DNA of 64,000 bases from Eledone cirrhosa (GCA_964016885.1 OZ024743.1:160642001-160706000); one strand, 5' to 3'. Counted from the first letter of the stretch, positions 8,482-48,336 are shown. The notes: generated by a model from the sequence alone, not told the origin. A program made the numbers and translations.

Positions 8482-8722
8482 TATTTTATTATGCGCATTT
8501 CAAAAACAAACATCATCATACAATAATATTTGTAGAGGGTCGGACGCCATGCTTTCCAGCATAGTTACGTCCCTTTACAATCTGAGTTCAAATCCCGCCG
8601 AGGTTGACTTTGCCTTTCATCCTTACGGGGTCGATAAAATAAAGTACCAGTAATGAACTGGGTAATTGCTGGCCTTGTGCCTAAAGTAGAAACAAATATT
8701 TGTGTTTTCATCAGATAAAACA
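8482..8722 (-). ncRNA. Hammerhead ribozyme copy disrupted by a SINE in stem II
   Basis: Reverse complement of 8733-8803 once 8534-8694 is removed. Confidence 0.7.
8534..8694 (+). mobile_element. 5'-truncated SINE with 9-bp TSD
   Basis: TSD AATATTTGT at 8525-8533 and 8695-8703. Confidence 0.85.
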
Positions 8723-8732
8723 GGAGTCCTCC

Positions 8733-8803
8733 TGTTTTATCTGATGAAAACACAAATATTATTGCATGATGATGTTTGTTTTTGAAATGCGCATAATAAA
8801 ATA
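8733..8803 (+). ncRNA. Minimal type-I hammerhead ribozyme
   Basis: TGTTTTAT-CTGATGA-long stem II-GAAA-TGCGCA(palindrome)-TA|ATAAAATA. Confidence 0.75.
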
Positions 8804-9627
8804 CATAGAACTCCTTTAACCATCTTTTGTTCTTATATACATATATATATGTATATATGTGTGTGTGTGAGTGCATGAGATGTATGTGCGTGTCAGTGTG
8901 TCTGTATGTGTGTGTGTGTGTGTATATACATACTATAATGTTTGATTTCATCCAATTGTTCATTATATATATATTAGTGTTTTCGATTCACTTTAACTGT
9001 CATTTTATGCAATAGATATTTAAAAAAGGTGAAGTGGCTATTCTGTTTGAGAGGTTTTCCTATATTTCGCTGAGTAAATAACGGTCATTTTATAATTTCC
9101 CATTGAAATAAGTCTATTTGTGATATTTAAACTAATGCTGCTAAATAATTGCTTCTTTCTATTAAAATGTTGAGGGATTGGTATCGAGGCCATTAGAGTT
9201 TTCGTTCTCTTGCAATTTCCATTATATATAACTACCGTGGCCACTCCTATACTCAGAACAGGAAAGAAAGAGTCAGAGAGAGACAAAGAGAGGTATAAAG
9301 TAATAATATTGATTTCTAGCATAAGAGCAAGGTCACACATTTCCTTTTGATATACGCATGTACATATATATATATATAAATCAGGATGGCCTCAATTTAA
9401 AACTGGTTAGACCATTAACGATAAGGGCTCAGCTGTCGGGGTACCGACTCTTTATAACTTATATATATGTAAGAAAAACCACAAACCCTCCACTTCAATT
9501 CTACTTTTCAAAAGCAGAACTGCGAAACCGGTAAAGGAACCAAATAAATATATATTTAAAAAAAAAAGACTCCAGTTGCATTTTCGATTTCATCTCTTTT
9601 CCTTATTCATATATATATATATATATA

Positions 9628-43784: not shown

Positions 43785-44712
43785 ATGTAAGTATGTATGT
43801 ATACGTACATACATATATGTATACAGACGTACAGTAGCATGCATATATATATATATATATATATATATATATATATATACATATATACACATATGCATAC
43901 AGGTACACATATATATATGCACGCATCAGTTTAGCCGACGTTTATTATAACGCAGCTTTGTTCGCTTGTTTGTCAACAAAGCTGCGTTATAATAAACGTC
44001 GGCTAAACTGATGCGTGCATATATGTATGTGTACCTGTATGCATATGTGTATATATGTATATATATATATATATATATATATATATATATATATATATAT
44101 ATGCATGCTACTGTACGTCTGTATACATATATGTATGTACGTATACATACATACTTACATTTAAGTAAGTGCCATACTAACAGTGAGAAATGAAATTTCG
44201 TTTTCATTTTTTTTCAACTTGTCGTTTTCGGTATGCCTGACCGATTTAACTCACTCAATATGCAAATTAGGCTGCTCAGCCGTTAATTTTCATAAGGAAA
44301 GTATATACTTTCGAACATTCAACTATCTGGCAGATGGGTAAACGGTGCTGATGATAGCTAACAAGCTTGAAACTAGTACATCGTTCCTGTGTCAGTGTTG
44401 AACAAAAAGGTGACGTGGTTGCCTTAACACCGTATGGCATAAATTCAGGCTGTTCGCTTTGTTGACAAACAAGCGAACAAAGCTGCGTTATAATAAACGT
44501 CGGCTAAACTGATGCGTGCATATATGTATGTGTACCTGTATTCATATGTATATATATATATATATATATATATATATATATATATATATATATATGCATG
44601 CTACTGTACGTCTGTATACATATATGTATGTACGTATACATACATACTTACATTTAAGTAAGTGCCATACTAAGAGTGAGAAATGAAATTTCGTTTTCAT
44701 TTTTTTTCAACT
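43785..44712 (+). mobile_element. Non-coding HHR element: ~501-bp unit as a 1.5-mer direct repeat plus inverted 5' segment (retrozyme or non-autonomous PLE)
   Basis: 43975-44220 is repeated at 44476-44712; 43785-43982 is inverted; HHR inside; (TA)n at both ends. Confidence 0.8.
44341..44385 (+). ncRNA. Type-I hammerhead ribozyme
   Basis: AACGGTG-CTGATGA-T-AGCT-AACA-AGCT-T-GAAA-CTAG-TA|CATCGTT; predicted cut after GUA at 44378. Confidence 0.88.
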
Positions 44713-44852
44713 TATATATATATGTATATATATATATATGTATATATATATATATATATATATATATATATATATATATATATATATATATATATATATA
44801 TATATATATATATATATATATATATATATATATATATATATATATATATATA

Positions 44853-47730
44853 TCCTCTCTGTTTCCCAGTGTTTTCGTTTTTTAACCTTGGGTTTTAAAG
44901 GGATGGTGTCGGCCGCTGCCTCTTTGAATGCCATTTGAAAGTGGTTAAATGTAGAATTTGATGATCTTGCTGTCGCAGAGTCTTGTAGGGCAGCAAATCG
45001 GTTGCTCTGTTGGGTTACAAAGGTTTTGTAAGTCTCAGGATTAGTATTCAGAACTGCCCAGTTGTAAGGAGTAGCATTTGCAGATTTCTTTTTATCCACT
45101 CGGAGACCTAATCGTATCTTGGCCGAGACAATGCGATGATCCAAGTCAACACTAACAAACAAGTCATATGTTCTGCAGTTTTTTCGGCTGTTCTTCCATT
45201 TTCGATTGATTATGATATAATCCAGTTGTGTCTTGTCACCATTTGGAGATTTGTGTGTCCACCGCTGGCCTGGTCTTTTTTGGAATATGGCGTTGAGATA
45301 TCGTAAATTGTTCTCACACAAGTAATATTTTAGCATACAACCGTTTCTATTGGTTTGTGAGTGGTATGAGAATTTGAATCCATCAAGCTGTCCAAGACGC
45401 GCGTTGAAGTCTCCGCCAATGATGAGAACATTATGTTTCGGGATTTGTCTAGTGAATGATGTTAGTTCTATGTAAAACCTCTCTACTTCGACCATGTCAT
45501 ACATTGGTTGGACTATAGGAAGAGATTACAGTGGTTTTAGGATTCCCGTTAAACGTAGCTATCATTATCCTTGAAAAGCATTCCAACTCCACCATTTTCT
45601 GCATTCATGTTGTTTTTCCAATCTGAGCAGGTTATCAGCCTCCAATTGCCAAATATTTGCTCCTTTGTTACAAGCTCTTCATGTATGCGCCGGTGCTCCT
45701 GAAGACAGATAACATCATGGTTGGTCGCCCCTGCTGCAGCAATCAATTCAGAGATTTTATGGTCTTTCTGGAGTGGTTAAACATTGAGTTTACCATCAAA
45801 GATGTCTTTCTTTCCGTCTACGAGTCGAGTTGGTTGTTTTCTCCGCCAAAAGCGCAAAGAGTTGCGAAAAGCTGCAGAATTGAAAGACACTCAACGATCT
45901 CCAGAAAACATTAGTAACTTCGGTGCTGCTTGTACAGCACTGAAAAGTGAGTATGAAATTGAGCAAGCCGAATACATGCAGAGAAAGATCAGTCATATCT
46001 CGAGTACTGCTAGCAATAATAAGTCTGCTGAAGCCTGGAAAACTGTCGATGAAATTAGTGGCAGAAAAAGTAGTGACAGAGCCAAAGTGAAAGCCTCCAG
46101 CCAAGACGAACGTTTAAAACTGTGGCAACAACATTTTCAGAACCTACTTGGCAAAGCACCACAGATCATCGAAGAAGAAATAATACCCGTTTTTACAGAG
46201 GAACACCAAATACAGAAAGGTCCTTTCACTATGGAGGAACTACAGAAGGCAGTGAAAAGTATTGGTAACGGAAAAGCGTGCGGACTCGACGAGATCCCAG
46301 CTGAAGTGTGGAAGGTACCTGAATTTCATCCAATCCTACTAGAGTTGGGTAATGGTGTCTATAATCAAGACCCCATAGACAAATGGACTGAGGGATGTAT
46401 ACTTCCTTTTCCCAAAAAGGGCGATCTTGGAATGGCTAAAAACTACCGTGGCATAACACTAATGGCAATTGTCGCAAAGATATACAATCTCATGTTGCTT
46501 GACAGAATAAGACCTGTCATTGACCCCTTGCTGAGAAAAAACCAAAATGGCTTCCGCACCAACAAATCCACATCAGGGCAAATACTTACAATTCGGCGTA
46601 TCTTGGAAGGCGTAAAAGCCAAAAACCTCCCAGCAACTCTCCTGTTTATTGACTTTTCAAAAGCATTCGATTCCATCCATCGTGGGAGGATGGAAGAGAT
46701 ACTTCTAGCCTAGGGCTTGCCAAGGGAAACAGTAAATGCCATCATGATGTTATATAAAAACACCCGCGCAATGGTCCGCTCACCTGATGGAGATACCAAC
46801 TTCTTTGACATCATAGCAGGAGTACTCGAAGGGGATACACTTGCACCATATATTTTTATCATCTGCCTCGACTATGTATTGAGAAAAGCCCTGGACGAAA
46901 ACTTAGAGCTTGGTTTCACTCTCACAAAGCGAAAGTGTAGACGCCAAGCAGCTCAGAAAATCACCGATGCTGACTATGTGGATGATTTAGCGGTCCTTGC
47001 TGACTACCTTAAGGATGCAACATCACTACTTCACAGCATCGAATCAGTTGCAAAGGAAATCGGACTCTGTCAACGCAGGCAAAACAGAATATATTTGCCT
47101 GAACCAAGACACCTCAGTTGGTATGCGAAGTCTAAATGGCGATATAATCAAGCAAGTTGGCGACTTCAAATACCTGGGTAGCTATATCGCCTCCACAGAA
47201 CATGATGTTAACATCAGACTGGGAAAAGCCTGGGGAGCATTGAATGCAATGGAAAAGATATGGAAATCAAACCTGCCGGCCAAACGGAAAAGGAGTTTCT
47301 TCAGAGCTGCTGTGGAGTCTGTGCTTCTTTATGGCTCTATCACTTGGACGCTAACGTCGAAACCGGAGAAAAAGCTAGACGGGGCATACACACGTATGCT
47401 CCGCGCTGCTTTAAACGTGTCTTGGAGGGAACACCCAACAATAAGGATCTCTATGGCAATATACCACCTATCAGCAGGTCAATACGTGGACAGAGACTTA
47501 GATTTGTTGGCCACTGTTGGCGCAGCAAGGAAGAAATAGCAGGTGATGTGTTGTTATGGATTCCATCTCATGGAACAAGAAACGCTGGTCGTCCCAAGAA
47601 GACATACGTCAAGCAACTTAAGGACGATACTGGATGCACTGCGGAAGAACTGGCAAACGCTATGAGAGACAGAGATGGATGGAGGAAGCGTGTCGTAGAA
47701 AGCCGAGCAAGCTCTACCTGATGATGATGA
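44853..47730 (+). mobile_element. RTE-clade LINE with inverted 5' (APE) part, inserted in (TA)n
   Basis: APE (ICLQEHR, GDFNA, LDYI, DHR) on minus 44853-45820; RT (NYRGITL, DFSKAFD, YVDD) on plus 45835-47721; short (TGA)n tail. Confidence 0.88.
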
Positions 47731-48336
47731 TATATATATATATAAATATACAAGGGTGTGTATGATTGTGTAGAGAAGAATATATTAATAAAAGGAATTC
47801 CAACTTTGTCTGATTTACTCGTTTTATATACAATCCTTTAAAATTATAATGATATTATAATGAAATAGTATGGTAGAATATTAAATGTTAAGTGTTAATT
47901 GAACAAGTACTTTCATGCTTTCGCAATCTTTCGCAATCTATATATATACATGTTTACATGCTAACTCAAGAGCAAGAACGAGGGGCTCATTCTACTGATA
48001 TGGCTTAGAAGTTTACATATATATATATAACAGATTAAAGTTTAAGCAAAGAATCGCTACTTTCACCCTTAATGGGATCTTCTGAACCTAAAAAAATCAA
48101 TCTGTGAACGCAGAAAATTTTGCCAGCGAAGGAAGACAGGAAGACGATACTTTGGTTCGTGGAAACGTTCCCTGACAAAGAGCGAAAAAAAAACGAAGAT
48201 AATACGTTATTATTTGGAGGGTGAAAACAATTACACGCAAAGACAAAACCACGTTAATGGTATAAATGAAGTCGTAGACTAATATTCTATTCGGTGGTTT
48301 GTGGAGACGTTCCCAGTCAATGAACGGAAAGAAAGT

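Follow-up and report, generated by a model that had tools for sequence, protein, structure and literature searches.

A 64-kb stretch of the 3.0-Gb genome of Eledone cirrhosa (G000:C4:160642001-160706000; hereafter the window, meaning the whole stretch analyzed) contains 15 sites that are all members of repeat families with type-I hammerhead ribozyme motifs. Judging from the sequence, these motifs are very probably type-I hammerheads at the 3′ pseudo-long terminal repeat (pLTR) ends of Penelope-like elements (PLEs), together with those of two tandem repeats that lack open reading frames (ORFs) and likely borrow PLE enzymes; most of the window copies appear to be solitary, truncated and probably inert. 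A preliminary description had proposed type-I hammerheads with a self-complementary helix III, belonging to many families, linked to PLEs and ending beside (TA)n, and this general picture was supported. Several of its more specific claims had to be modified, as described below.

Type-I hammerhead motifs in the window

The descriptor consisted of CUGANGA, a stem II of at least 3 bp, GAAA, a self-complementary spacer, UH and a stem I of at least 4 bp. Strict matches were found seven times (cores at 8741+, 20237+, 27546+, 28587+, 44348+, 28912- and 31219-), compared with a mean of 0.04 and a maximum of one in 100 block-wise/local dinucleotide shuffles of the window, so that the motif is not simply as frequent as in shuffled DNA. 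With Watson-Crick palindromes only, six matches were obtained versus 0.005 in 200 shuffles. The bare CUGANGA box was not clearly enriched (41 in the window versus 30.7±5.6 in shuffles). Six of the strict matches were sound, namely 8741+ and 28587+ (spacer TGCGCA), 20237+ (CCATGG), 27546+ and 28912- (CG) and 44348+ (CTAG). The seventh, 31219-, was mis-parsed: the GAAA claimed for it occurs in 2 of 21 aligned rows (the window copy included) and GTAA in 15, and the true GAAA lies ~60 nt further on. When the core was read in type-I order (CUGANGA, GAAA and UH with stems I and II), six intact copies were present in the window and two more had a 2-bp stem I.

All four cleavage positions predicted previously (20303, 27573, 28641 and 44378) matched the descriptor parse. 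The four sites that had been regarded as relics also proved to be members of hammerhead families in which other members keep the full core: 26606+ has GGAA, 47901-47929- is truncated in the core, and 9500+ and 29420- have a U3-A8 pair.

An Rfam scan of the window returned no hammerhead at E≤1; the HH9 model was weak at the CTAG site (18.5 bits, E=1.8, gathering 52). A permutation scan (C3-G8 core; at least 4, 3 and 4 for stems II, III and I, at least 13 in total) detected no non-circularly permuted (type-SGC and so on) or scrambled hammerheads in the window. Chance matches in AT-rich repetitive DNA would be an alternative explanation for these motifs, and the 31219- parse did use a chance GAAA, loose shuffles yield about four matches per 790 kb and no Rfam hammerhead was significant. 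However, strict matches are more than 100 times as frequent as in shuffles, fall into recurring families and show covariation, by which this explanation is refuted and left with practically no probability. The window motifs are confirmed as genuine type-I hammerhead sequences, for which self-cleavage is predicted.

Motif families linked to Penelope-like elements

Six of the 11 families, here designated by their spacers (GATT, TGCGCA, CG, CAATTG, CCGG-b and GTAC), run upstream into PLE GIY-YIG coding sequence. Because the upstream sequence is PLE-like GIY-YIG coding, these six are read as 5′-truncated 3′ ends of coding PLEs, one of them from a very young family. GIY-YIG-type coding ends 945-1059 nt upstream of TGCGCA copies (3 of 30), and the PLE endonuclease lies 485-685 nt upstream of CG copies (6 of 29). 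At the motif level, endonuclease motifs were found upstream in 4/24 CCGG-b (~750 nt), 2/19 CAATTG (Hydra type) and 1/19 GTAC (~500 nt) paralogue loci. The families have a fixed right end and ragged left ends, the pattern that 5′ truncation would produce. A (TA)n run follows downstream at family-typical distances (for example, 11 nt away for 27 of 30 CCGG-a copies and 80-179 nt away for 31 of 32 CG copies), against a background of 0.11 per 60 nt, and copies are often arranged as head-to-head pairs (13/27 for TGCGCA, 12/24 for GTAC and 12/51 for CTAG). Features of EN+ (endonuclease-containing) PLEs that were observed are 5′ truncation, an inverted arm, a one-sided tail and a microsatellite target.

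The preliminary description had considered the motifs as separate non-coding elements. If all families were independent ribozyme elements of this kind, the upstream PLE would be a neighboring insertion in the same (TA)n hotspots. It is true that most copies are short, with no coding sequence in the adjacent 1.5 kb (for example, 27/30 for TGCGCA and 23/29 for CG), and that insertions cluster and nest in (TA)n (27243-29800). But the endonuclease shares the strand of the motif and keeps a distance that is constant within a family, independent loci are collinear in the DNA between the two, and the left ends are the ragged ones, so that the idea is largely refuted for the six families and appears very unlikely overall. 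ORF-less tandem units were shown only for the CTAG and CCATGG families.

The TGCGCA family is represented by two intact hammerheads, at 8735-8801+ (the 3′ end of a Hydra-type PLE family, with a predicted cut after 8795) and 28581-28647+ (predicted cut after 28641), and by a copy on the minus strand (8484-8720) that is genuinely split by a short interspersed element (SINE), as had been proposed. The 3′ half of this copy (8484-8533; stem II, GAAA, TGCGCA, site and stem I) and its 5′ half (8695-8720; stem I and CUGAUGA), which is head-to-head with 8735-8801, are separated by a plus-strand SINE within stem II (8534-8694, limits approximate) belonging to the commonest short repeat family of the window (D11/D16). 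A relative, the TATGTA-subfamily copy at 17480-17539-, had been listed among the motifs with a closing stem I (17532-); it is a family hammerhead, but its closing stem I is disrupted and down to 1 bp. The CG family has two intact hammerheads in separate insertions that are 90% identical, at 27542-27577+ (the 3′ end of an older PLE family, with a predicted cut after 27573) and 28881-28916- (predicted cut 28885). The remaining PLE-linked copies are a CAATTG hammerhead in which GAAA is changed to GGAA (26602-26639+), the CCGG-b copy at 29387-29424-, whose core is intact and whose stem I is 1 bp, likewise in most paralogues, and a GTAC hammerhead truncated within the CUGANGA box (47901-47929-). 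Five PLE 3′ ends of three families are found within 2.6 kb around (TA)n runs at 27243-29800, forming a nested insertion hotspot.

The GATT motif belongs to the very young PLE, whose window copy (10641-15983) consists of head-to-head truncated arms plus a one-sided tail between (TA)n runs. The long arm (10696-14363-) contains a 5′-truncated reverse transcriptase (RT)-GIY-YIG ORF that matches from residue 169 of 1217 (stop-to-stop frame 11217-14537), and the short inverted arm (14364-15983+) is 100% complementary to 10696-12315 and terminates in (AT)37. The tail is a 55-nt extension past the pLTR (10641-10695-), identical to the sequence after the pLTR in a tandem PLE copy and adjoining (TA)14. 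Each arm carries the pLTR hammerhead with an extra nucleotide after A9, a 6-bp stem II, a GATT spacer and a 2-bp stem I (10909-10949-, and a second identical copy at 15730-15770+ with a predicted cut after 15768). The two motifs previously noted at 15735+ and 10944- are thus real, but they represent the two identical arms of a single inverted insertion (100% complementary over 1620 nt), with a 2-bp stem I and a spacer, GATT, that contains G-U.

At other loci, the 1217-aa RT-GIY-YIG ORF is present in 4117-bp tandem units with a GATT motif in each pLTR, and many intact frames were seen in tandem (for example, at locus L245). Copies were gathered by protein search: the C-terminal 175 aa were 100% identical in 150 of 150 scored copies, out of 37,858 first-look candidates for the endonuclease region. 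This identity at high copy number suggests an ongoing burst, despite the 2-bp stem I of the putative ribozyme. Atlas neighbors of the young PLE carry the RVT_1, HTH_animal and GIY-YIG families; scans of the PLE ORFs against Pfam and PDB gave no match, and the best named relative of the Penelope protein in the window is from Octopus vulgaris (68% identity). In addition, an abundant PLE family that is 50-60% identical to the window PLE has a non-palindromic GAAC/GGAC spacer (L120, L126, L128, L141 and L234), which would give a central mismatch in the predicted dimer.

Tandem repeats without open reading frames

The CTAG and CCATGG families are organized differently. CTAG arrays are composed of 490-550 bp units that are 99-100% identical, dispersed and often arranged as two opposed arms, whereas CCATGG units are ~650 bp long; arrays of 7-10 units were observed. 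The longest ATG-initiated ORF is 65 aa in CTAG and 47 aa in CCATGG, and a PLE bait was found upstream of none of the copies (0/34 and 0/24, respectively). Both units fit retrozymes without long terminal repeats (non-LTR retrozymes), which likely borrow PLE enzymes. In the window, CCATGG occurs as a solo truncated copy with an intact hammerhead (20231-20309+, predicted cut after 20303). The CTAG copy corresponds to 1.4 units: the insertion at 43782-44713+ (I15, D14) comprises an inverted partial arm, one 493-bp unit with internal (TA)n and a partial second unit, and its intact hammerhead (44341-44385+, predicted cut after 44378) has a 7-bp stem I, a U.U at the base of stem II and a 6-nt loop 2. 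This motif is closer to canonical retrozyme hammerheads than to minimal PLE ones, and the preliminary designation of the motifs as minimal type-I has to be qualified to that extent.

Comparisons here and below refer to the consulted parts of the cited papers. As in metazoan retrozymes, CTAG and CCATGG have ORF-less tandem units with one type-I hammerhead each, a low GC content (34%), a unit size within the reported 51-972 bp and co-occurrence with PLEs (PMC7229834; bioRxiv 10.64898/2026.07.22.740005). The U.U mismatch at the base of helix II in the CTAG motif is shared with HHR_Amex2 of axolotl. Circular RNA and cleavage have been shown for published retrozymes, whereas CTAG and CCATGG are known here from sequence alone. 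No pLTR homolog was found for CTAG or CCATGG among the six PLE 3′ ends tested. The consulted coverage of the retrozyme papers includes no cephalopod (PMC7229834; bioRxiv 10.64898/2026.07.22.740005).

Alternatively, the CTAG and CCATGG arrays might be ordinary satellites that arose from an old pLTR by unequal crossover at the DNA level, without an RNA step. Some arrays are indeed long (L242 has 15 scored units, and a cluster on contig C4 spans ~60 kb), and local amplification has been raised as one route (bioRxiv 10.64898/2026.07.22.740005). Nevertheless, CTAG arrays are dispersed at many sites with 99-100% identity and often have PLE-like opposed arms flanked by (TA)n, which makes a pure satellite origin quite unlikely.

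ORF-less tandem arrays with a CGCG hammerhead and 310-311 bp units were also observed (L013:1860-3140, L230, L248 and L249). They are related in architecture to the CTAG family, and the one in L248 is nested beside CTAG arrays. The L242 array is a 422-nt CTAG subfamily that spans the whole 10-kb sample.

Core variants and covariation

In two CCGG families, U3-A8 replaces C3-G8, a core variant that has been reported from Schistosoma (PMC4209133). The window copy of the first, CCGG-a (9503-9536+), has lost G5. Catalytic-core nucleotides are kept in more than 20 families, including the compensated U3-A8 pair. In the genome sample defined below, the alternative combinations at positions 3 and 8 were rare or missing: 53 matches had C3G8, compared with two each for U3A8 and U3G8 and none for the control cores C3A8, A3U8 and G3C8.

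The old family to which the mis-parsed 31219- match belongs was aligned over 21 of 25 loci (alignment A1), with L171 and L175 (misaligned) and L167 and L174 (internal deletions) removed. In 15 of 21 rows, the branched stem II of ~97 nt is followed by GAAA, and there is a 10-nt palindrome and a GUC site (11 of 21 rows). A non-hammerhead nature of this family was rejected when the alignment was extended to the true GAAA. The window copy (31096-31224-) is decayed and has lost U16.1.

The TGCGCA, TATGTA and TATATA families align as one superfamily, so that the families are not all unrelated, contrary to the preliminary description; that there are many families is correct. Eleven representatives of this superfamily, picked by pattern without regard to stem II pairing or palindrome, were used to analyze covariation. 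Ninety-six percent of cells were paired, two-sided changes occurred in seven of nine stem II pairs and two of four palindrome pairs, and none of 500 shuffles reached the score, in a control that ignores relatedness. The structure of the TGCGCA superfamily thus appears to be under selection. Covariation across paralogues, by which the hammerhead assignment was to be judged, was found for this superfamily and not for the 31219 family, in which 34 of 500 shuffles reached the score.

Proposed mobilization and possible function

Based on published work, the following route may be proposed. At a tandem source locus, a read-through transcript would join two hammerheads, whose palindromes would form a shared helix III. 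The RNA would be cut to unit length and possibly circularized, and the PLE RT and GIY-YIG endonuclease would insert a copy of it at (TA)n, in most cases breaking off early and in many cases with an inverted arm added. The ribozyme, located 11-350 nt from the 3′ end, would be kept in nearly every truncated insertion; survival of this 3′-near position would explain the very high motif count. Cleavage would thus matter at tandem source loci, and the window copies would mostly be inert footprints, because no member of the same family lies on the same strand within about 20 kb of any of them.

Several observations weigh against this scheme. Stem I is 2 bp in the active PLE and 1 bp in CCGG-b, and neither GATT of the active PLE nor GAAC, the commonest PLE-linked family found without seeding, forms a stable isolated duplex. 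CTAG and CCATGG units had no BLAST match to the six PLE 3′ ends. No PLE parent was present in 24 paralogue loci of CCGG-a (0/24), TATGTA has no parent seen directly, though it aligns with the TGCGCA family, and the 31219 family, for which no search for a parent was made, also has none assigned and does not covary beyond shuffles. The shuffle controls ignore relatedness, and palindromes receive a scoring bonus in the descriptor. Only one of nine Xenopus dimers was cleaved in vitro (bioRxiv 10.64898/2026.07.22.740005), and cleavage, transcript and circle are predictions here.

Alternatively, the motifs could be kept as an RNA structure whose job is not efficient self-cleavage, such as a packaging, priming or enzyme-binding signal for the PLE RT, or the ribozyme could parasitize PLE ends. 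The PLE that has been most successful in this genome carries what looks like the weakest ribozyme (2-bp stem I, GATT), cleavage by published PLE hammerheads is poor even in dimeric form (PMC4209133), and Naiad PLEs spread without canonical hammerheads (PMC8557442). On the other hand, the core is kept across more than 20 families, the compensated U3-A8 pair only makes sense for a catalytic fold, and related axolotl motifs cleave well as dimers (PMC7229834). A role other than efficient cleavage is therefore rather improbable.

Genome-wide abundance and palindromes

To place the window in context, 79 stretches of 10 kb were taken at fixed round coordinates (789.6 kb); contigs are not represented strictly according to their length in this sample, and small ones are missing. 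It contained 89 loose and 63 strict matches, compared with 4.25 and 0 in eight shuffles. By resampling, at least seven strict matches per 64 kb occur with P=0.24, and the window as a local hotspot was rejected. The window is an ordinary sample of the hammerhead landscape of this genome; the 'dense population' of the preliminary description is true of the genome and not a peculiarity of the window. Extrapolation gives 2.4 × 10⁵ strict motifs genome-wide (bootstrap 1.3-3.9 × 10⁵), or 1.8 × 10⁵ (1.1-2.7 × 10⁵) when one long array is excluded. The estimated 1.8-2.4 × 10⁵ motifs in 3.0 Gb exceed the largest published count that we met (126,247 in the ~28-Gb axolotl genome), although descriptors differ.

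Motifs formed 22 clusters present in at least two loci (339 loci). A Watson-Crick palindrome was found in 19 of them, and in 12 of 15 among unseeded clusters; the exceptions were GAAC, CCGCCGG and the G-U type TATGTA, and GATT also needs G-U pairs. Clusters 11, 13, 16, 21 and 22 (for example, L119, L158, L174, L218 and L231) have 6-8-nt palindromes and 45-120-nt stem II arms, and one of these long-stem-II clusters has a U3-A8 core and CTACGTAG. Standard short-stem-II descriptors would miss families with such arms.

In predictions for isolated duplexes, pairing of a palindrome with itself is far more stable than pairing with a different one in the case of TGCGCA, CCATGG, CCGG, CAATTG, CTAG and GTAC (-4.8 to -11.2 kcal/mol). 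The best cross pair is TGCGCA with CGCG (-5.4 kcal/mol), and other cross pairs are at -3.1 or weaker. CG, TATGTA and TATATA show no such marked advantage of homoduplexes. The proposal that different palindromes make dimerization family-specific is thus borne out only in part, for six of the longer palindromes, but TATATA, CAATTG, CGATCG and CCGG are each used by at least two different families, and a unique palindrome barcode as a strict rule was rejected. Moreover, incompatibility follows trivially from different palindromes. It seems unlikely that this is the most hammerhead-dense animal genome yet counted (~1 motif per 12-16 kb, more than 20 families, with an ongoing Penelope burst) and that, at such an RNA dose, its long, covarying palindromes were selected as partner codes by which the ribozymes of a family dimerize and cut mainly with one another. 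Dimeric cleavage of PLE hammerheads was reportedly the subject of a 2017 study by Lunse, Weinberg and Breaker, whose mechanism, as judged by its title and citing reviews, is the one put forward in the preliminary description.

Comparison with known systems

Minimal PLE hammerheads showed no activity as monomers and weak activity as dimers (PMC4209133). In axolotl, cutting by retrozyme motifs is much better when they are dimers, and circles are produced (PMC7229834); retrozymes have been proposed as non-autonomous PLE derivatives (bioRxiv 10.64898/2026.07.22.740005). The window families resemble the minimal hammerheads of PLE pLTRs in the extra nucleotide after A9, long helix II, short helix I and palindromic helix III, and also in forming many variable families of mostly solitary or opposite-strand copies from truncated PLEs; a 2-bp helix I has already been described in Penelope of D. 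virilis (PMC4209133). By contrast, published PLE counts are 2,000-9,000 per genome versus an estimated 2 × 10⁵ here, with differing descriptors, and in several families the palindromes (6-10 nt) and the stem II arms (35-120 nt) exceed the published consensus in length (PMC4209133).

With regard to the carriers, ORFs linked to TGCGCA and CAATTG share the Hydra CxCX5C linker, and TGCGCA also has CxxC and CxH around a conserved E/N; the young PLE compares with Neptune/Nematis-type EN+ PLEs in CX4CxxC, a DKG-like motif and CCHH (PMC8557442). These Hydra and Neptune/Nematis clade calls are based on motifs read by eye, without a tree. The window insertions share (TA)n targets, inverted truncated arms and a one-sided tail with EN+ PLEs, the tail being 55 nt compared with 30-40 bp in Naiads (PMC8557442).

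All of the components have been published before: minimal PLE hammerheads with a palindromic helix III, U3-A8 cores, the presence of many families in one genome, retrozyme arrays and clades that target (TA)n. What is unusual is only how abundant the motifs are estimated to be and how widely the long palindromes and stem II arms vary. No report of cephalopod hammerheads was found in the literature, where subscription papers, Repbase/Dfam and the supplements of the 2026 preprint and of PMC4209133 may list families; the main text of the repeat annotation of Octopus vulgaris does not contain ribozyme, hammerhead or retrozyme (PMC13282606). In this genome, an autonomous PLE that is very young exists side by side with young retrozyme arrays and with more than 20 families of ribozymes that differ in their palindromes, a ready panel that would serve studies of dimer cleavage, heterodimer exclusion and PLE-driven mobilization.

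Other repeats in the window and the genome sample

Microsatellites, fragments of long interspersed elements (LINEs) and SINEs are abundant in the window. Two or three diverged L1/Tx1-like LINE copies with ORF1, AP (apurinic/apyrimidinic) endonuclease and RT are located at 34093-39700 and 57199-64000, in opposite orientations and 78-92% alike. At 44707-47721, adjoining the CTAG insertion, an RTE/CR1-type LINE is present in opposite-strand pieces (endonuclease on the minus and RT on the plus strand). An abundant SINE family of ~200 bp often forms tandem pairs and shows an apparent preference for (ATT)n or AT-rich sites (3-1088, 8534-8694, 16723-16911, 19380-19791, 25182-25580, 33184-33391, 50406-51605 and 56151-56646). 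In the genome sample, L147:1752-2664 and L249:1-3900 are unrelated minisatellites of 48 and 51 bp, respectively; the unit in L147 contains a GAAA-GTAC-TT string without a CUGANGA box.

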